Source: Escherichia coli | Lineage (GTDB): Bacteria; Pseudomonadota; Gammaproteobacteria; Enterobacterales; Enterobacteriaceae | DNA length: 64,000 nucleotides | Assembly: GCF_024502345.1 (NCBI RefSeq) | Contig: NZ_JALDNN010000001.1 | Direction: 5' to 3' (one strand) | Part shown: positions 2,694 to 64,000 of the stretch, in pieces | How positions within the stretch are numbered: position 1 is the first letter of the stretch | Layout of the letters: each line of letters opens with the position of its first letter | The notes under the pieces: generated by a model | Seen by the model: the letters and a program-made list of their open reading frames with translations, nothing else | Database searches by the model: none | Told to the model about the DNA's origin: nothing | Made by a program: the position numbers and the translations under genes

Positions 2694-3263
2694 ATCTCCT
2701 CCTGTAAGCAGAGGGCAATTTCCGCCGATATATGCGCTTCTAAGGCGGAGTTACTATTTAGCGAAGTCTTGCCCTGAAATAATGCTCTGTTTAAACGCAA
2801 AGTGATCTGGCATATCACCGAACAGAGAGCCTGAACAACACAACATATAGTATGTCGTTGTTTCTGGTTGCATTTTATGTTGTGTAATACTGGTTTTGCA
2901 TCAAGGATGTTTGAGCTTTTTTTGATATAGCTCAAAGTAAAAAGCAGGGACTACGGATGATAAGGTATTGAAAGCAATGTAAATTTTTTAAAGTTATTGG
3001 TGGCTAAAAAATGCACGGTTTCAATATGGCGGACTTAAATAAGCAATTAAAAAAGTCATAAATATCACTAAAATCATGGTGTTACGTTTTTTGTGGGAGC
3101 TGCGGTGACGCTTAAGTTGATTTGTCATTAAATAAGCCGTGCATGCAACAAGTGAATGTTTTTGCATGCGTCGGGGATGCCCGTTCCAGCTGCTTGCGGT
3201 CAGAGCTGGTGCGGATCCATAGTATCTATGCAACTGCATTAAAACCGACTCATGAAGCGGGCG

Positions 3264-12186: not shown

Positions 12187-12637
12187 GTTTAAGCGTTTTG
12201 AAGACCGGCTGACCGGACTTATTGAATCGCTGTCACCGTCAGGGCGTCGGCGACTGGCGGTAGATATTGCGAAGAAACTGCGCCAGCGCCAGCAGCAGCG
12301 AATTAAATTACAAAAAGCCCCGGATGGTACGCCGTATGTACCGAGAAAAAACCAGCCAGTGCGAAATAAGAAAGGCCGGATAAAGCGGGAAATGTTTGCG
12401 AAATTACGCACAAACCGATTTATGAAAGCAACAGGTAGCGAGAGTGCGGCTGTGGTGGAGTTTGCCAGCGGAGTACAACGAATTGCGAGAGTACATCAAT
12501 TAGGGCTTAGGGATAAGCCGGGGCGTAATAGTGCTGTGGTGGAATATCCTGTTCGTGAGTTATTAGGTTTTGACAAGGAATCTATACAATTGATAGAAAA
12601 GGAGTTATTAGTGATTCTATCGAAAGATGTTATATGA
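12179..12637 (+). CDS. S: P2 gpS tail completion protein (152 aa), 3' part AT-rich/mosaic
   Basis: MNEFKRFEDRLTGLIESLSPSGRRRL N-terminus; composition turns AT-rich in 3' third. Confidence 0.85.
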   Translation: MNEFKRFEDRLTGLIESLSPSGRRRLAVDIAKKLRQRQQQRIKLQKAPDGTPYVPRKNQPVRNKKGRIKREMFAKLRTNRFMKATGSESAAVVEFASGVQRIARVHQLGLRDKPGRNSAVVEYPVRELLGFDKESIQLIEKELLVILSKDVI

Positions 12638-22338: not shown

Positions 22339-23529
22339 ATGAGTGACTATCATCACGGCGTGCAGGTGCTGGAGATTAACGACGGCACCCGCGTCATTTC
22401 CACCGTATCCACTGCCATTGTCGGCATGGTCTGTACGGCCAGCGATGCAGATGCGGAAACCTTCCCCCTCAATAAACCGGTGTTGATTACCAATGTGCAG
22501 AGCGCAATTGCAAAGGCCGGTAAAAAAGGCACGCTGGCGGCATCGTTGCAGGCCATCGCTGACCAGTCAAAACCGGTCACCGTTGTCGTGCGCGTGGAAG
22601 ACGGCACCGGTGATGACGAGGAAACGAAACTCGCGCAGACCGTTTCCAATATCATCGGCACCACCGACGAAAACGGTCAGTACACCGGACTGAAAGCCCT
22701 GCTGGCGGCGGAGTCGGTAACCGGTGTTAAACCGCGTATTCTCGGCGTGCCGGGACTGGACACCAAAGAGGTGGCTGTTGCACTGGCATCAGTCTGTCAG
22801 AAGCTGCGCGCTTTCGGGTATATCAGCGCATGGGGCTGTAAAACTATTTCCGAGGTGAAAGCCTACCGCCAGAATTTCAGCCAGCGTGAGTTGATGGTCA
22901 TCTGGCCGGATTACCTCGCATGGGATACGGTCACCAGTACCACCGCCACCGCGTATGCCACCGCCCGTGCGCTGGGTCTGCGCGCTAAAATCGACCAGGA
23001 GCAGGGCTGGCATAAAACACTGTCCAACGTTGGGGTGAACGGTGTTACCGGCATCAGCGCATCTGTATTCTGGGATTTGCAGGAGTCCGGCACCGATGCT
23101 GACCTGCTGAATGAGTCAGGCGTCACAACGCTGATTCGCCGTGACGGTTTCCGCTTCTGGGGTAACCGTACCTGCTCTGATGACCCGCTGTTCCTCTTTG
23201 AAAACTACACCCGCACCGCGCAGGTACTGGCCGACACGATGGCTGAGGCGCACATGTGGGCGGTGGACAAGCCCATCACCGCAACGCTGATTCGCGACAT
23301 CGTTGACGGCATCAATGCCAAATTCCGTGAGCTGAAAACAAACGGTTATATCGTGGATGCGACCTGCTGGTTCAGCGAAGAATCCAACGATGCGGAAACC
23401 CTCAAGGCCGGAAAACTGTATATCGACTATGACTATACACCGGTGCCTCCTCTCGAAAACCTGACCCTGCGCCAGCGTATTACCGATAAATACCTGGCGA
23501 ATCTGGTCACCCCGGTTAACAGCAATTAA
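22339..23529 (+). CDS. FI: P2 gpFI tail sheath protein (396 aa)
   Basis: 396 aa, size and position. Confidence 0.9.
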   Translation: MSDYHHGVQVLEINDGTRVISTVSTAIVGMVCTASDADAETFPLNKPVLITNVQSAIAKAGKKGTLAASLQAIADQSKPVTVVVRVEDGTGDDEETKLAQTVSNIIGTTDENGQYTGLKALLAAESVTGVKPRILGVPGLDTKEVAVALASVCQKLRAFGYISAWGCKTISEVKAYRQNFSQRELMVIWPDYLAWDTVTSTTATAYATARALGLRAKIDQEQGWHKTLSNVGVNGVTGISASVFWDLQESGTDADLLNESGVTTLIRRDGFRFWGNRTCSDDPLFLFENYTRTAQVLADTMAEAHMWAVDKPITATLIRDIVDGINAKFRELKTNGYIVDATCWFSEESNDAETLKAGKLYIDYDYTPVPPLENLTLRQRITDKYLANLVTPVNSN

Positions 23530-29042: not shown

Positions 29043-29069
29043 AAAAAATAAGCCCGTGTAAGGGAGATT
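29043..29069. other. attR: Probable P2 attachment core (prophage/host junction) overlapping the cyaR 3' end
   Basis: AAAAAATAAGCCCGTGTAAGGGAGATT matches the 27-nt P2 att core as recalled; lies exactly where phage sequence gives way to host backbone. Confidence 0.5.
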
Positions 29070-29129
29070 ACACAGGCTAAGGAGGTGGTTCCTGGTACAG
29101 CTAGCATTTTATGGGTTATGTTTTTCAGC
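29043..29129 (-). ncRNA. cyaR: CyaR (RyeE) Hfq-dependent sRNA
   Basis: Minus strand reads GCTGAAAAACATAACCCATAAAATGCTAGCTGTACCAGGAACCACCTCCTTAGCC...terminator hairpin and U-run; sits between yegQ and the ogr end as in K-12. Confidence 0.8.
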
Positions 29130-29213
29130 GAAACGGATGATAACCTTAATAAATGCAGCTGTATGTGATCGGTTTCTAAGAATTTTCCATCCGGGAAAAA
29201 TAATCGAAATTAA

Positions 29214-43199: not shown

Positions 43200-43340
43200 A
43201 CGCTGAAACGGGAAAGCCCCTCCCGAGGAAGGGGCCATAAATAAGGAAAGGGTCATGATGAAGATACTCATCATCGTGGTGCTCTTAGTGATTAGCTACC
43301 CAGCATACTAAGACTACCAGGGCGGGGGAAACCCCGCTCT
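43200..43340 (-). ncRNA. Sib antisense sRNA, unit 1 (approximate boundaries)
   Basis: Sib RNAs are about 140 nt and fully antisense to ibs; the hairpin upstream of ibs on the plus strand would serve as the minus-strand terminator. Confidence 0.45.
43255..43311 (+). CDS. Ibs-family type I toxin peptide (MMKILIIVVLLVISYPAY)
   Basis: Tiny hydrophobic ORF with SD-like aaggaaaggg upstream, in repeat unit 1. Confidence 0.7.
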   Translation: MMKILIIVVLLVISYPAY

Positions 43341-43527
43341 ACCCTCACTCCTGAAAGTATGCCTTCACGTTCAGAATGTCAATCCGCAGGCTTTGCAGTC
43401 TGCGATCCTGCCAGCAAATATTCTTTGCGAGACGTTACGCAATAATCACAGAGGAAACTATTTTGTTCACGCGTTAGCGATAGACTGAATTCAGGGCGAA
43501 AGGAGGTAAGCCGACGATTTCAGCGGG

Positions 43528-43668
43528 ACGCTGAAACGGGAAAGCCCCTCCCGAGGAAGGGGCCTTAAATAAGGAAAGGGTCATGATGAAGTGGATCATC
43601 ATCGTGGTGCTCTTAGTCATAAGCTTCCCGGCTTACTAAGACTACCAGGGCGGGGGAAACCCCGCTCT
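43528..43668 (-). ncRNA. Sib antisense sRNA, unit 2 (approximate boundaries)
   Basis: As unit 1. Confidence 0.45.
43583..43639 (+). CDS. Ibs-family type I toxin peptide (MMKWIIIVVLLVISFPAY)
   Basis: Same architecture in repeat unit 2. Confidence 0.7.
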   Translation: MMKWIIIVVLLVISFPAY

Positions 43669-43855
43669 ACCCTCACTCCTGAAAGTATGCCTTCACGATA
43701 AGATTGTCAATCTGCAGGCTTTGCAGTCTGCGATCCTGCCAGCAAATATTCTTTGCGAGACGTTACGCAATAATCACACTGGAAACTATTTTATCCGCAA
43801 GTCAGCGATAGACTGCATGCATGGCGAAAGGAGGTAAGCCGACGATTTCAGCGGG

Positions 43856-43996
43856 ATGCTGAAACGGGAAAGCCCCTCCCGAGGAAGGGGCCTTAAATAA
43901 GAAAAGGGTTATGATGAAGCACGTCATCATACTGGTGATACTCTTAGTGATTAGCTTCCAGGCTTACTAAGAACACCAGGGGGAGGGGAAACCTCT
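43856..43996 (-). ncRNA. sibA: Sib antisense sRNA, unit 3 (approximate boundaries)
   Basis: As unit 1. Confidence 0.45.
43911..43970 (+). CDS. ibsA: Ibs-family type I toxin peptide (MMKHVIILVILLVISFQAY)
   Basis: Same architecture in repeat unit 3; closest to the K-12 IbsA sequence as recalled. Confidence 0.7.
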   Translation: MMKHVIILVILLVISFQAY

Positions 43997-44189
43997 CCCT
44001 AACCCTCACTCCTGAAATTATGTCACTCCGCCCTTAGTGTCAATCGACGGCTCTCCGTTCTTGCGAGGCGAATAGCAAAATTTTCTGCGCCGCCGGGACT
44101 AATTCTGAAAGTTTCTTCGTTTGCTCTTATTTCATTATTGCAGTCGGTATGATACCGGACCTCAATAATTCTCTAAGAAAGGATTTCTT

Positions 44190-57115: not shown

Positions 57116-58699
57116 TCACACCTCGTACTCCATCTCGCCATCCTTACGCAGCGGTATAATCTGCACCTTCTGCACGCGATGGCTTTCTACCTGCAACGTT
57201 TTAAGCAAATAATCCCCCACCTGAACTTCTTCGCCAGGTTTTGGAATACGCTGCAAATACTCCATCAACAGCCCGGCAATGGTGTGATATTCACGTTTTT
57301 CATCCAGCGGCAGCGGCACATATTGCACCAGATCCTCCAGCGGCATATGACCATTCGCCGTCCAGGAACCGTCCGCATTTTTCTGAATATCATGGCGGGC
57401 GTCGATCTCTTCCACTTCGTTCGGTAAGTTACCGGCAATGGTTTCAGTGACGTCACTTAATGTCACAATCCCTTCCACCGAGCCAAACTCATCCACTACA
57501 AAAGCAAAGTGCGTGCGGGCATTACGGAACTGCTCCAGGGCAGGTAACAACGGCAAGGTTTCCGGGAACACCAGCGGCTGGCGAATCAACACCCGCAGGT
57601 TGAGCGGTTCGCCGCGCAGTGACTGTTGTAGCAGGTCGATAACGTGAACAACACCGAGCAAATCTTCTGCGTCATCACCGTCGGTAACCACCAGCCGCGT
57701 ATGCTGATTTCGCTCCAGTAACTGGCGGATCTCGTCTTCCGGCGCGTTGAGATCGATATGCTCAATATCGTGGCGCGACGTCATAATGCTGCTGACGGTA
57801 CGCTGGTTAAGATTTAGTACCCGCTCAATCATCCGCCGTTCCTGCGGATTAAAGATCTGCTGGTTACCATGATCCACCAGCATGGACGCGGTTTCGGCGT
57901 CCAGTTCCGCATCTTCTTTTTGCCCGCTAAGCAGGCGCATTACCGCTTCGGTAGTCCGCTGGCGTAGCGTCTGGTTAGCGGAAAGAAAACGTCGCCGGTT
58001 AAAGATAGCCAACTGATTGAGCGCCTCGATCATCACCGAGAAACCAATGGCAGCGTACAGGTAGCCTTTCGGAATGACGAAGCCGAAACCTTCTGCCACC
58101 AGGCTAAAGCCAATCATCAACAGGAAGCTTAAGCAGAGAATAACGATGGTCGGGTGACTGTTAACAAATTGCGTTAACGGCTTGCTGGCCATCAACATCA
58201 GGCTGATAGCGATAACCACGGCGGCCATCATGACCAGTAAATGGTCGACCATCCCGACGGCGGTAATCACTGAGTCGAGTGAGAAAATGGCGTCCAGTAC
58301 CACAATTTGCGTCACCACGCCCCAGAACTTCGCACCTTTGCGTTGTGTGGGATTATTGCTGTCTTTCCCTTCCAGCCGTTCGTTCAGCTCCATCGTGGCT
58401 TTGAACAACAGGAATAAACCACCAAACAGCATGATTAAGTCGCGGGCGCTAAAGGTAAACGAGCGGAAGCTGAACAGCGGTTGAGTCAGGGTGACCAGCC
58501 AGGAGATTGACGCCAGCAGTAACAGGCGCATTAACATTGCCAGCAGCAGCCCGGTAACCCGTGCGCGGTCACGCTGCTTCGGCGGTAGTTTTTCGGCGAG
58601 GATGGCAATAAAGACCAGGTTATCAATGCCGAGGACCAGTTCGATCACAATCAGCGTGATTAACCCGGCCCAGATAGACGGATCGGCAATCCATTCCAT
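57116..58699 (-). CDS. yegH: TerC/CBS/CorC-domain inner membrane protein YegH (527 aa)
   Basis: Start placed at [16 protein letters not shown] within ORF 57116-58765; multi-TM N-terminal half and CBS/CorC-like C-terminal half. Confidence 0.9.
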
Positions 58700-59167
58700 A
58701 GTAAGTACAAAACCTATTCGTTGTATGACAAATGTCACAATTCGATCATGGATAAATCGGGGCAAAAATGCAATGTTGCAGCACTATTTATCTCATATTA
58801 TTTGAGGGTAATAACCTCACATTATCCCTGAATTAAAAGTGGTAATAATAAAACATTATTTAAGAAATATCGCATGTGGAGACACTATATTAAATATTGT
58901 CAACCTAAAGAAACTCCTAAAAACCATATTGAATGACACTTAATATAATTCTTAAAAATAGCCAATTACCGAATTGTTATCTTGCCTGCTATTCCGTTAG
59001 CTGTAACACTTCCTCCTGCATTATTGGAAAGCCAATATTCAATTACCATAATGTCACCTTATATTCGGAAGTTAATTTCCGTAATAACCCTTTCTCATCA
59101 ACGACTGCATGCTGAGAGGGTGTGAAAAATTAAACTAAATCAGTGTATTGGTAGCTAAAAAGCCAGG

Positions 59168-59179
59168 GGCGGTAGCGTG
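59168..59179 (+). promoter_or_regulatory. ops element (GGCGGTAGCGTG) within a JUMPstart-like leader upstream of wza
   Basis: Exact 12-mer GGCGGTAGCGTG about 180 nt upstream of the wza start codon. Confidence 0.6.
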
Positions 59180-59357
59180 TCTGGATGCCTGAAAGACCAG
59201 TCTGAATTATTCTGTCAATAGCCTGCGGATGAAATCAATTTTTTTAGGACTGATGCCAGTTAAATTTTTATTCAATTAACTGCAAGGTAAATGTGCATGG
59301 CGACATTGCTATTAATAGTGCACAGGATAATTACTCTGCCAAAGTGATAAATAAACA

Positions 59358-60497
59358 ATGATGAAATCCAAAATGAAATTGATGCCATTATTGGTGTCAG
59401 TAACCTTGATAAGCGGTTGCACAGTACTTCCGGGCAGCAATATGTCGACGATGGGCAAAGACGTCATCAAACAGCAGGACGCTGATTTCGATCTCGACAA
59501 AATGGTGAATGTTTATCCGCTGACCCCGCGCCTGATTGACCAATTACGCCCACGCCCGAATGTAGCGCGCCCCAATATGACGCTGGAAAGTGAGATCGCG
59601 AATTACCAGTATCGCGTCGGGCCGGGGGACGTTCTTAATGTCACCGTCTGGGATCACCCGGAACTCACCACGCCAGCCGGTCAGTACCGCAGCTCCAGCG
59701 ACACCGGCAACTGGGTACAGCCTGACGGCACTATGTTTTACCCGTATATCGGCAAGGTCCACGTAGTCGGGAAAACGCTCGCTGAAATCCGCAGTGATAT
59801 TACCGGGCGCTTAGCGACGTACATCGCTGACCCGCAGGTGGACGTTAATATCGCCGCCTTCCGCTCACAAAAGGCCTATATCTCCGGTCAGGTGAATAAA
59901 TCCGGTCAACAGGCGATCACCAACGTGCCACTGACTATTCTCGACGCCATCAACGCCGCAGGTGGCCTGACCGACACCGCTGACTGGCGCAACGTGGTGT
60001 TAACACACAATGGTCGTGAAGAACGCATTTCTTTGCAGGCGCTGATGCAAAACGGCGACCTCAATCAGAACCGACTGCTTTATCCCGGCGATATTCTCTA
60101 CGTGCCGCGTAATGATGATCTGAAAGTGTTTGTGATGGGTGAAGTGAAGAAACAGAGCACCCTGAAAATGGACTTTAGCGGCATGACCCTGACTGAAGCC
60201 CTGGGCAATGCTGAAGGCATCGACATGACCACCTCCAACGCCAGCGGCATCTTTGTCATTCGTCCGCTGAAAGGCGAGGGCGGGCGTAACGGCAAGATTG
60301 CCAATATCTACCAGCTGGATATGTCCGATGCGACGTCGCTGGTGATGGCGACAGAATTCCGCCTGCAACCTTATGACGTGGTGTATGTCACCACCGCCCC
60401 GGTTTCCCGCTGGAACCGTCTGATCAATCAGTTGCTGCCAACTATTAGCGGTGTCCGTTACATGACGGATACAGCCAGCGACATTCATAACTGGTAA
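59358..60497 (+). CDS. wza: Colanic acid export outer membrane lipoprotein Wza (379 aa)
   Basis: Signal peptide with lipobox LISGC; 379 aa. Confidence 0.95.
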
Positions 60498-60502
60498 TCG
60501 TC

Positions 60503-60946
60503 ATGTTTAACAACATCTTAGTTGTCTGTGTCGGCAATATTTGCCGTTCCCCGACGGCGGAACGCTTACTGCAACGTTATCACCCGGAGCTGAAAGTGGA
60601 GTCCGCTGGACTCGGCGCGCTGGTCGGTAAGGGCGCTGATCCTACCGCTATCAGCGTCGCCGCAGAACATCAACTGTCTCTGGAAGGTCACTGTGCACGG
60701 CAAATCAGCCGCCGCCTGTGTCGCAACTATGACCTGATTTTGACCATGGAAAAGCGCCATATCGAACGCTTATGCGAGATGGCACCTGAGATGCGCGGCA
60801 AAGTGATGCTGTTTGGTCACTGGGATAACGAATGTGAAATCCCCGATCCGTATCGCAAAAGCCGGGAAACGTTTGCAGCGGTGTACACATTACTTGAACG
60901 GTCTGCCCGCCAGTGGGCGCAGGCATTGAACGCAGAGCAGGTATAA
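60503..60946 (+). CDS. wzb: Low molecular weight protein-tyrosine phosphatase Wzb (147 aa)
   Basis: CVGNICRSP P-loop motif; 147 aa. Confidence 0.95.
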   Translation: MFNNILVVCVGNICRSPTAERLLQRYHPELKVESAGLGALVGKGADPTAISVAAEHQLSLEGHCARQISRRLCRNYDLILTMEKRHIERLCEMAPEMRGKVMLFGHWDNECEIPDPYRKSRETFAAVYTLLERSARQWAQALNAEQV

Positions 60947-60948
60947 GA

Positions 60949-63111
60949 ATGACAGAAAAAGTAAAACAACATGCCGCTCCGGTAACGGGCAGTGATGAAA
61001 TCGATATTGGTCGCCTGGTCGGCACCGTCATTGAAGCGCGCTGGTGGGTGATTGGCATCACCGCTGTATTTGCCCTCTGTGCTGTGGTTTACACTTTCTT
61101 CGCCACGCCGATTTATAGTGCCGACGCACTGGTACAAATCGAACAAAACAGCGGCAATTCGTTAGTGCAGGACATTGGCTCGGCATTAGCCAACAAACCG
61201 CCTGCATCGGACGCCGAGATCCAGTTGATTCGTTCGCGTCTGGTGCTTGGTAAAACGGTGGACGATCTAGACCTCGATATTGCGGTGAGCAAAAACACGT
61301 TCCCGATTTTCGGTGCGGGTTGGGATCGCCTGATGGGACGTCAGAACGAGACGGTGAAAGTGACCACCTTTAACCGCCCGAAAGAGATGGCGGACCAGGT
61401 GTTTACGCTTAATGTGCTGGATGACAAAAACTACACTCTGAGCAGTGATGGCGGCTTTAGCGCCCGTGGGCAAGCGGGCCAGATGCTGAAAAAAGAAGGC
61501 GTCACGCTGATGGTTGAAGCCATTCACGCCCGCCCGGGCAGTGAGTTTACCGTCACCAAATACTCCACGTTGGGGATGATCAACCAACTGCAAAACAGCC
61601 TGACGGTAACGGAGAACGGCAAAGACGCAGGCGTACTGAGCCTGACTTATACCGGTGAAGATCGCGAACAGATCCGCGACATTCTTAACAGCATCGCCCG
61701 TAACTATCAGGAACAAAATATTGAGCGCAAATCGGCGGAAGCGTCGAAAAGCCTCGCTTTCCTCGCGCAACAGTTACCGGAAGTACGTAGCCGCCTCGAT
61801 GTTGCCGAAAACAAACTGAATGCCTTCCGTCAGGATAAAGATTCTGTTGATCTGCCGCTGGAAGCGAAAGCGGTGCTCGATTCGATGGTGAACATCGACG
61901 CGCAGTTGAACGAACTGACCTTTAAAGAGGCGGAAATCTCCAAGCTGTACACCAAAGTTCACCCCGCGTACCGCACGCTGCTGGAGAAACGTCAGGCGCT
62001 GGAAGACGAAAAAGCCAAACTTAATGGTCGCGTAACGGCGATGCCGAAAACCCAGCAGGAAATTGTCCGTCTGACCCGCGATGTCGAGTCTGGTCAGCAG
62101 GTCTATATGCAACTGCTGAATAAAGAGCAGGAGCTGAAAATCACCGAAGCCAGCACCGTCGGCGATGTGCGCATTGTTGACCCGGCAATCACCCAGCCAG
62201 GTGTACTGAAACCGAAGAAAGGGCTGATTATCCTTGGGGCGATTATTCTTGGCCTGATGCTCTCTATCGTGGGTGTGCTGCTGCGCTCGTTGTTTAATCG
62301 CGGCATCGAAAGCCCGCAGGTGCTGGAAGAACACGGTATCAGCGTCTATGCCAGCATCCCGTTGTCGGAATGGCAGAAAGCGCGCGATAGCGTCAAAACC
62401 ATCAAAGGGATTAAACGCTATAAACAGAGCCAGCTACTGGCGGTGGGGAATCCAACCGATCTGGCGATTGAAGCCATCCGTAGTCTGCGTACCAGTTTGC
62501 ACTTCGCGATGATGCAGGCGCAGAACAATGTGTTGATGATGACCGGGGTTAGCCCGTCAATCGGTAAAACCTTTGTCTGCGCCAACCTGGCGGCGGTGAT
62601 CAGCCAGACCAATAAACGCGTGTTGTTGATCGACTGCGATATGCGCAAAGGCTACACCCACGAGCTGTTGGGCACTAATAACGTTAATGGCCTGTCGGAA
62701 ATTCTGATTGGTCAGGGCGATATTACTACCGCTGCTAAACCGACCTCTATTGCCAAATTTGACCTGATCCCGCGCGGTCAGGTGCCGCCAAATCCTTCTG
62801 AACTGTTGATGAGCGAACGCTTTGCCGAACTGGTGAACTGGGCGAGTAAAAACTATGACCTGGTGTTGATTGATACGCCGCCGATTCTGGCAGTGACCGA
62901 TGCGGCAATTGTTGGTCGTCATGTTGGAACCACGTTAATGGTGGCGCGTTATGCGGTCAACACATTGAAAGAAGTGGAAACCAGTCTGAGCCGCTTTGAG
63001 CAAAACGGTATTCCGGTGAAAGGGGTGATTCTGAACTCCATCTTCCGCCGCGCCAGCGCGTATCAGGATTATGGCTATTACGAATACGAATATAAGTCGG
63101 ATGCGAAATAA
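60949..63111 (+). CDS. wzc: Tyrosine autokinase / polysaccharide co-polymerase Wzc (720 aa)
   Basis: Start at MTEKVKQHAAP within ORF 60913-63111; Walker A GVSPSIGKT; Tyr-rich C-terminal tail YQDYGYYEYEYKSD. Confidence 0.95.
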   Translation: MTEKVKQHAAPVTGSDEIDIGRLVGTVIEARWWVIGITAVFALCAVVYTFFATPIYSADALVQIEQNSGNSLVQDIGSALANKPPASDAEIQLIRSRLVLGKTVDDLDLDIAVSKNTFPIFGAGWDRLMGRQNETVKVTTFNRPKEMADQVFTLNVLDDKNYTLSSDGGFSARGQAGQMLKKEGVTLMVEAIHARPGSEFTVTKYSTLGMINQLQNSLTVTENGKDAGVLSLTYTGEDREQIRDILNSIARNYQEQNIERKSAEASKSLAFLAQQLPEVRSRLDVAENKLNAFRQDKDSVDLPLEAKAVLDSMVNIDAQLNELTFKEAEISKLYTKVHPAYRTLLEKRQALEDEKAKLNGRVTAMPKTQQEIVRLTRDVESGQQVYMQLLNKEQELKITEASTVGDVRIVDPAITQPGVLKPKKGLIILGAIILGLMLSIVGVLLRSLFNRGIESPQVLEEHGISVYASIPLSEWQKARDSVKTIKGIKRYKQSQLLAVGNPTDLAIEAIRSLRTSLHFAMMQAQNNVLMMTGVSPSIGKTFVCANLAAVISQTNKRVLLIDCDMRKGYTHELLGTNNVNGLSEILIGQGDITTAAKPTSIAKFDLIPRGQVPPNPSELLMSERFAELVNWASKNYDLVLIDTPPILAVTDAAIVGRHVGTTLMVARYAVNTLKEVETSLSRFEQNGIPVKGVILNSIFRRASAYQDYGYYEYEYKSDAK

Positions 63112-63115
63112 CGAC

Positions 63116-63176
63116 GCCTGCATTCGCACCGCCCCGTAGGCCGGATAAGGCGCTCACGCCGCATCCGGCAAGCAAA
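63116..63176. repeat. REP palindromic element between wzc and wcaA
   Basis: gcctgcattcgcaccgccccgtaggccggataaggcgctcacgccgcatccggcaagc. Confidence 0.7.
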
Positions 63177-63203: not shown

Positions 63204-64000
63204 ATGAAAGATAATCCGCTGATCTCAATCTATATGCCAACCTGGAACCGCCAACAACTGGCGATTCGGGCGATAAAATCGGTCCTGCGCCAGGACTACA
63301 GCAACTGGGAGATGATCATCGTGGATGATTGCTCCACCTCCTGGGAACAACTGCAACAGTACGTCACCGCCCTCAACGATCCGCGTATCACTTACATCCA
63401 CAACGATATTAACAGCGGGGCGTGCGCGGTACGTAACCAGGCTATTATGCTGGCGCAAGGGGAATACATTACCGGGATCGATGACGATGACGAATGGACA
63501 CCCAACCGCCTGAGCGTCTTCCTCGCCCATAAACAGCAACTGGTCACTCACGCCTTTTTGTACGCTAACGACTACGTATGCCAGGGAGAAGTTTATTCCC
63601 AACCAGCAAGCTTACCACTGTATCCCAAATCGCCGTACTCACGCCGCCTGTTCTATAAACGCAATATCATTGGCAATCAGGTTTTTACCTGGGCGTGGCG
63701 TTTCAAAGAGTGCTTGTTCGATACCGAACTGAAAGCAGCACAGGATTACGACATCTTCCTGCGGATGGTGGTGGAGTATGGCGAACCGTGGAAAGTGGAA
63801 GAGGCGACGCAGATCCTGCATATCAATCACGGTGAAATGCAGATCACCTCGTCACCGAAAAAATTCTCCGGGTACTTCCACTTTTACCGCAAGCACAAAG
63901 ATAAATTTGACCGTGCAAGCAAAAAATATCAGCTGTTTACCCTCTACCAGATCCGCAATAAACGTATGACCTGGCGCACTTTGCTGACGCTGCTGTCGGT
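63204..64000 (+). CDS. wcaA: Colanic acid glycosyltransferase WcaA, 5' part (runs off window end)
   Basis: MKDNPLISIYMPTWNRQ... family-2 glycosyltransferase N-terminus; open frame to the end of the window, so absent from the ORF track. Confidence 0.85.
   Translation, partial: MKDNPLISIYMPTWNRQQLAIRAIKSVLRQDYSNWEMIIVDDCSTSWEQLQQYVTALNDPRITYIHNDINSGACAVRNQAIMLAQGEYITGIDDDDEWTPNRLSVFLAHKQQLVTHAFLYANDYVCQGEVYSQPASLPLYPKSPYSRRLFYKRNIIGNQVFTWAWRFKECLFDTELKAAQDYDIFLRMVVEYGEPWKVEEATQILHINHGEMQITSSPKKFSGYFHFYRKHKDKFDRASKKYQLFTLYQIRNKRMTWRTLLTLLS

Follow-up and report, generated by a model that had tools for sequence, protein, structure and literature searches.

An ops/JUMPstart element in the wza leader of the Escherichia coli colanic acid operon as a probable RfaH loading site

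Does the untranslated DNA in front of wza carry a signal that loads the antitermination factor RfaH onto RNA polymerase, and would such a signal serve the colanic acid operon that follows? The original prediction had placed the RfaH-recruiting ops 12-mer at 59168-59179 of the window (the whole stretch of E. coli DNA that was analysed, 64,000 nt long), in the leader of the colanic acid operon, and had taken it to be consistent with antitermination control. Window positions 58650-59450 showed 100% identity to E. coli K-12 MG1655 and matched 4838 of 5426 complete E. coli genomes, and the 91 nt around the element were present at an identity of at least 95% in 4817 of the 5426. On the identical MG1655 DNA, the RefSeq gene order is yegH, wza, wzb and wzc, with no feature listed by RefSeq in the yegH-wza intergenic region; asmA is the next gene beyond yegH. 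The genes concerned are as follows.

57116-58699, minus strand: yegH, the divergent neighbour, a 527-aa membrane protein of the TerC/CNNM type (profile match, RefSeq)
59358-60497, plus strand: wza, outer-membrane polysaccharide export lipoprotein and first gene of the operon (NF011658, 729 bits; RefSeq)
60503-60946, plus strand: wzb (equivalog NF007520, 329 bits against a cut-off of 243)
60949-63111, plus strand: wzc, tyrosine autokinase/co-polymerase (equivalog NF008568, 1518 bits against a cut-off of 1068)
63204-64000, plus strand: wcaA, colanic acid glycosyltransferase, cut by the end of the window (NF007453, 624 bits; TIGR04017, 614 bits)

Note that NF011658, whose cut-off was passed by Wza, is a general polysaccharide-export subfamily model, whereas the models for Wzb, Wzc and WcaA are colanic-acid equivalogs.

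The predicted 12-mer, GGCGGTAGCGTG, was recovered as an exact match on the plus strand at 59168-59179, and it is the sole copy in the 64 kb window; a search of both strands with up to one mismatch revealed no second site in the window. With respect to wza it is on the coding, non-template strand and 190 nt upstream of the ATG, in intergenic DNA that is followed by Wza, Wzb, Wzc and WcaA, which confirms the predicted location in the colanic acid leader. No exact copy occurred in 100 dinucleotide-preserving shuffles of the window; at one mismatch, a match was found in 27 of the 100 shuffles. The 12-mer by itself is therefore only moderately unlikely, being suggestive rather than decisive. The decisive evidence that the motif is real is its sequence context. 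GGCGGTAGCGTG is the 3'-terminal part of a complete JUMPstart element of 39 nt, recognized by Rfam model RF01707 over positions 1-38 of 38 with 57.3 bits, compared to a gathering threshold of 35 (E = 2.3e-12 in a scan of 58600-59500; E = 1.6e-10 for the whole window at curated thresholds). This full-length match bears out the identification as ops/JUMPstart. The element shares its strand with wza-wzb-wzc-wcaA and sits in the 658 nt that separate yegH from wza. This spacer is AT-rich, at 25-36% G+C, and its G+C content peaks locally at JUMPstart. Its parts are:

59141-59179, plus strand: JUMPstart, 39 nt, CAGTGTATTGGTAGCTAAAAAGCCAGGGGCGGTAGCGTG (Rfam RF01707; nearly invariant across 75 orthologous leaders)
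59168-59179, plus strand: ops, GGCGGTAGCGTG (exact match; conserved in orthologs; RfaH ChIP at the CFT073 ortholog, PMC9765446)
59170-59175, plus strand: RfaH contact core of ops, C3-G8 (functional map of PMC5995543)
59178/59179, plus strand: ops pause dinucleotide T11/G12 (functional map of PMC5995543)

The ops core GGCGGTAG is exact at 59168-59175, with bases C3-G8 intact. Judged from sequence only, ops also matches the consensus pause G-10 Y-1 G+1, with G2 at 59169, T at 59178 and G at 59179. The 8-nt core GGCGGTAG is overrepresented in the window, with 8 copies compared to 1.34 expected from dinucleotide shuffles (none of 100 shuffles reached 8). The copy in the wza leader is the only one of the eight outside long open reading frames and the only one with T11G12. 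The other cores are at 12256, 26024 and 58581 on the plus strand and at 22870, 29451, 40302 and 47690 on the minus strand. We considered these seven as additional ops sites and rejected them, as all lie within long open reading frames and none has T11G12. Codon usage, and not a set of functional ops sites, probably accounts for the excess of cores.

How does the element compare with established RfaH targets? We scanned the MG1655 rfb and waaQ leaders with RF01707 beside the wza leader and obtained 60.0 bits for rfb, 57.3 bits for wza and 55.2 bits for waaQ; all three elements end in the identical GGCGGTAGCGTG. By this score, the wza element is indistinguishable from the classical K-12 RfaH targets, and the comparison with known ops leaders that had been proposed as a check came out in favor of the prediction. 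Like the rfb and waaQ elements, it has the 39-nt architecture, belongs to the 5' leader of a long operon for envelope polysaccharide, where it occupies the non-template strand, and precedes a first gene without a ribosome-binding site. In contrast to rfb and waaQ, the wza operon is silent without Rcs activation or removal of H-NS. The spacing differs as well, the wza site being 190 nt from the gene, compared to 71 nt for the CFT073 wzx/rfb equivalent and 61 nt for rfaQ (PMC9765446). The waaQ JUMPstart moreover lies wholly inside the annotated 73-nt sRNA rirA (positions 3167-3239 of the MG1655 locus L085), whereas no equivalent is annotated for wza or rfb.

Occupancy of the orthologous site by RfaH has been described in uropathogenic strain CFT073. 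Data set S2 of PMC9765446 (Hustmyer et al. 2022, which cites Navasa 2014, FEBS Lett) lists the CFT073 wza ops as GGCGGTAGCGTG, on the non-template strand of the UTR, 190 nt before wza. This is the ortholog of the element described here, with the same 12-mer, strand and 190-nt spacing; we detected no sequence difference. In a CFT073 hns stpA double mutant, the RfaH ChIP signal extended from wza to wcaL and was gone when rfaH was deleted. Wild-type CFT073 grown in rich medium showed a silent operon and no RfaH signal there (PMC9765446). RfaH occupancy at wza is thus conditional, since expression of the operon needs either an active Rcs phosphorelay or the removal of H-NS. Note that the ChIP strain is deficient in hns and stpA, in contrast to the K-12-type strain of the window. 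JUMPstart/RfaH control of the colanic operon is described in PMC9976346, with citation of Stout 1996, Hobbs & Reeves 1994 and other work, and also in PMC3673037; PMC9976346 and PMC8117528 treat the JUMPstart of the leader and its link to RfaH as established. The JUMPstart of the wza leader has been cited since 1994-96. One review-type source describes RfaH as only 'presumably' required for cps.

To follow the element across species, we searched with the Wza protein, taking one genome per species. This yielded 80 loci from ~20 enterobacterial genera, including Escherichia, Salmonella, Citrobacter, Enterobacter, Lelliottia, Kosakonia, Phytobacter, Franconibacter, Atlantibacter, Trabulsiella, Cedecea and Buttiauxella; 79 of the loci had upstream DNA. 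An intact GGCGGTAG within a recognizable JUMPstart was present at 74 of these 79. The distance from ops to wza was essentially fixed at 186-199 nt in 73 of the 74 loci with an intact core (distances of 216-223 nt represent the same position, as the protein match there starts at residue 10). In the locus of Citrobacter amalonaticus S646 (L046), ops is located 335 nt upstream of wza, due to a 119-nt insertion in the leader between the two. One further locus (L006) has a JUMPstart in which the core carries a single mismatch. In the column conservation profile of 75 leaders, JUMPstart stands out as a nearly invariant island, and the ~120 nt directly upstream of it (59018-59140) are poorly conserved.

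The Pseudescherichia vulneris group (three genomes; L036, L037 and L040) lacks ~63 nt comprising the whole JUMPstart, cleanly removed at the window equivalent of ~59132-59194. The promoter-like blocks upstream and the leader downstream are kept. The element is therefore not indispensable for having a colanic acid operon. The colanic acid leader of this group is a naturally occurring allele without ops.

Within ops, the 55 distinct orthologous copies were invariant at C3-C9 and T11. Variation was confined to G2, which changed once, to G10, which varied freely (G/A/C), and to G12, which was replaced by A in 3 copies and kept in 52 of 55. In published mutagenesis, substitutions at ops positions 3-8 reduced or abolished RfaH recruitment, T11G12 was assigned to the pause and position 10 was unconstrained (PMC5995543). 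The pattern of constraint across orthologs thus matches the published map of RfaH recruitment. Together with the published RfaH ChIP at the CFT073 ortholog (PMC9765446), it supports the RfaH-recruiting role that had been predicted for the element, and the antitermination reading is supported as well.

For RfaH to load, ops must lie inside the transcript. This is suggested by a conserved promoter-like block upstream of it and by the RfaH ChIP in another strain (CFT073). Since RfaH loads only on polymerase transcribing through ops, the ChIP signal at ops indicates that ops is transcribed in CFT073. This would also speak against the refuting condition named with the prediction, a mapped start that leaves the element outside the transcript. 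The upstream elements that we propose are:

58982-59010, plus strand: candidate wza promoter, suggested by conservation, with a -35 element TTGCCT at 58982-58987, a 17-bp spacer and a TG-extended -10 element TGTAACACT at 59002-59010
58907-58920, plus strand: candidate RcsAB/RcsB box TAAAGAAACTCCTA, inside the conserved block 58898-58925
58943-58956, minus strand: second putative Rcs-box-like sequence TAAGAATTATATTA, inside the conserved block 58940-58957

The candidate promoter at 58982-59010 is the best-conserved promoter-like block, both in the profile of 75 leaders and in a 4-way alignment. It would imply a start of transcription near 59017-59020, a leader of ~340 nt, and a position of ops ~150 nt into the transcript. 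Between ops and wza (59180-59358), no promoter-like site was found on the plus strand. A further candidate from a sigma-70 consensus scan, at 59024-59052, was rejected as a promoter because conservation between yegH and wza is lowest there. The candidate box at 58907-58920 matches 10 of the 14 positions of TaAGaatatTCctA, which we take to be the RcsAB consensus. A search of the yegH-wza intergenic region for this consensus with up to 3 mismatches gave no match; the candidate Rcs boxes listed here (4 mismatches) are put forward as putative sites solely for their conservation.

We next consider the leader downstream of ops, in which two further blocks stand out.

59205-59265, plus strand: conserved leader block 3' of ops (profile of 75 leaders; kept in lineages without JUMPstart)
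59320-59357, plus strand: nearly invariant 38 nt abutting the wza ATG, without a Shine-Dalgarno sequence (profile of 75 leaders, 4-way alignment)

Both blocks are 90-100% conserved among the 75 leaders from ~20 genera, each contains an AGGA, and both are retained in the P. vulneris lineage without JUMPstart. The best anti-Shine-Dalgarno duplex of wza has an energy of -1.6 kcal/mol, compared to -6.4 for wzc and -7.4 for wcaA, consistent with the absence of a Shine-Dalgarno sequence from wza. The RfaH-dependent waaQ and rfb leaders have likewise been described as lacking one (PMC6358824; PMC5995543). Note that a missing Shine-Dalgarno sequence after ops is a common correlate of RfaH sites and not a strict definition of them. 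The fold of the 353-nt putative wza leader was not unusually structured (z = -0.91).

Taken together, the feature is very probably the ops/JUMPstart element of the E. coli colanic acid (wza-wcaM, 'cps') operon, which loads RfaH for antitermination. In the established mechanism, polymerase pauses at U11 of ops, and a hairpin in the non-template strand flips out a conserved T that is read by RfaH. Bound RfaH suppresses pausing, Rho-dependent termination and H-NS blocks to elongation, and recruits the 30S subunit to leaders without a Shine-Dalgarno sequence (PMC5995543, PMC6358824, PMC9765446). Applied to the present locus, transcription would start at an Rcs-activated, H-NS-silenced promoter, located by our estimate ~150 nt upstream of ops. 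RNA polymerase would pause at T11 (59178), because ops matches the consensus pause, and the exposed non-template GGCGGTAG would form a small hairpin in which G5/T6 are offered to the RfaH N-terminal domain. The factor would then load, keep NusG out and remain on the polymerase, so that pausing as well as Rho-dependent and H-NS-mediated termination would be reduced over the length of the operon. Once refolded, the C-terminal domain of RfaH could bring the 30S subunit to wza, which lacks a Shine-Dalgarno sequence. To this account our analysis contributes the sequence of the element, where it lies and on which strand, the family to which it belongs, how it is conserved, and the missing Shine-Dalgarno sequence; the literature supplies the occupancy of the ortholog by RfaH and the way in which ops works at the molecular level, and the exact start site and the barriers overcome are what we infer.

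Which barriers might RfaH-modified polymerase meet? The 92-nt spacer between wzc and wcaA contains a palindrome:

63140-63169, plus strand: REP-type palindrome GCCGGATAAGGCGCTCACGCCGCATCCGGC in the wzc-wcaA spacer (found in the sequence; hairpin by both MFE and centroid folding)

The palindrome lacks a T-tract, and it was not among the intrinsic terminators predicted. A terminator scan from wza to wcaA gave 7 candidates compared to 5.4 in shuffles; on the plus strand there was no excess over chance, and the wzc-wcaA spacer had no candidate on that strand. The palindrome may be a barrier that is read through by RfaH-modified polymerase. Transcription beyond wzc is reported to need RfaH (PMC3673037). 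In group 1 capsule loci (K30 and Klebsiella cps), JUMPstart likewise precedes homologous Wza-Wzb-Wzc export genes, and RfaH-mediated read-through of a hairpin after wzc has been proposed (PMC6128206; PMC3673037). The REP-type hairpin of the window sits where the group 1 loci are said to have an attenuating stem-loop, after wzc. The two systems differ in that the group 1 JUMPstart is located between galF and wzi and expression there is described as constitutive (PMC6128206), whereas the JUMPstart of the window is located between yegH and wza and expression is Rcs-dependent.

Other readings of the element have to be weighed against RfaH loading through non-template DNA. JUMPstart might act mainly as an RNA element, either through the hairpin UUGGU...GCCAG or as a RirA-like RNA that titrates RfaH. 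Rfam indeed lists JUMPstart among the cis-regulatory RNAs and gives it a 5-bp stem, this stem is paired in 99.3% of cells among the wza copies, and the sRNA rirA, inside which the waaQ JUMPstart lies, is reported to bind RfaH in an ops-dependent manner (PMC6358824). However, the 5 pairs of the stem showed no compensatory double change among the 55 distinct copies and nothing above shuffles, the stem being nearly invariant. The absence of compensatory changes suggests that constraint acts at the level of sequence, as expected for a DNA signal read by a protein; for the RNA hairpin itself, the comparison of copies speaks neither for nor against. Moreover, the invariant positions of ops coincide exactly with the RfaH contacts in the DNA complex, the z-score of the leader fold gives no sign of unusual structure, and RefSeq annotates no sRNA in the wza leader of MG1655. 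We consider a mainly RNA-based function improbable.

The element could also be positioned upstream of the functional wza start, or the main promoter could lie downstream of it, so that it would act, if at all, as a site in duplex DNA. The persistence of the strongly conserved blocks at 59205-59265 and 59320-59357 in lineages without JUMPstart is compatible with such an arrangement, but the RfaH ChIP signal in CFT073 begins at the wza ops, spans wza-wcaL and depends on ops being transcribed. Upstream, at 58982-59010, is the promoter-like block with the best conservation, and no such block was found on the plus strand of 59180-59358. Such an arrangement is thus very improbable, and still less credence can be given to a chance GC-rich 12-mer without function. 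The frequency of one-mismatch matches in shuffles (27 of 100) and the 8 copies of the 8-mer core in the window, mostly in genes, would permit chance occurrence. Against this stand the absence of the exact 12-mer from all 100 shuffles, the E value of the 39-nt model (1.6e-10) and the conservation of position across genera; the latter refutes the chance explanation.

RfaH loading at a JUMPstart on the non-template strand is thus the preferred reading, and the finding is correct, ordinary and already published. It confirms the textbook layout, in which long, horizontally acquired envelope-polysaccharide operons carry an ops/JUMPstart element recruiting RfaH, which lets transcription and translation get to the distal genes. 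Between yegH and wza, where RefSeq has no feature, the element merits annotation as regulatory. What is added here is minor and comparative: the fixed spacing in ~20 genera, constraint that mirrors the RfaH contact map, and one lineage in which the element has been lost.

Whether the wza leader acts beyond the loading of RfaH, as a RirA-like short RNA or through a post-transcriptional control site at the downstream blocks, is a separate matter, and we regard such additional functions as doubtful. Were they real, a JUMPstart-containing 5' RNA made under Rcs induction could titrate RfaH off the LPS operons (waaQ, rfb), and this would link capsule induction to LPS remodelling. The blocks at 59205-59265 and 59320-59357 could together form a previously undescribed post-transcriptional control site before wza with its missing Shine-Dalgarno sequence; a control site of this kind would explain how P. 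vulneris could lose JUMPstart and yet keep the remaining leader.

Several additional features were noted in the window. At the gathering threshold, Rfam models identified three tandem Sib antitoxin RNAs on the minus strand (43240-43382, 43568-43710 and 43896-44043; 140-146 bits) and the sRNA CyaR/RyeE, also on the minus strand (29046-29131; 100.7 bits). In E. coli L9 (L002), and also in MY203L1 and EC-07, the yegH-wza region is interrupted by an IS1 element of ~768 bp, at the window equivalent of 58782-58791. In E. coli L9, the IS1 is flanked by a target duplication of 9-10 bp, CACTATTTAT, and is located ~200 nt upstream of the candidate -35 element and ~380 nt upstream of ops. A similar Pcps::IS1 allele emerged during laboratory selection for colanic-acid phenotypes (PMC8117528).
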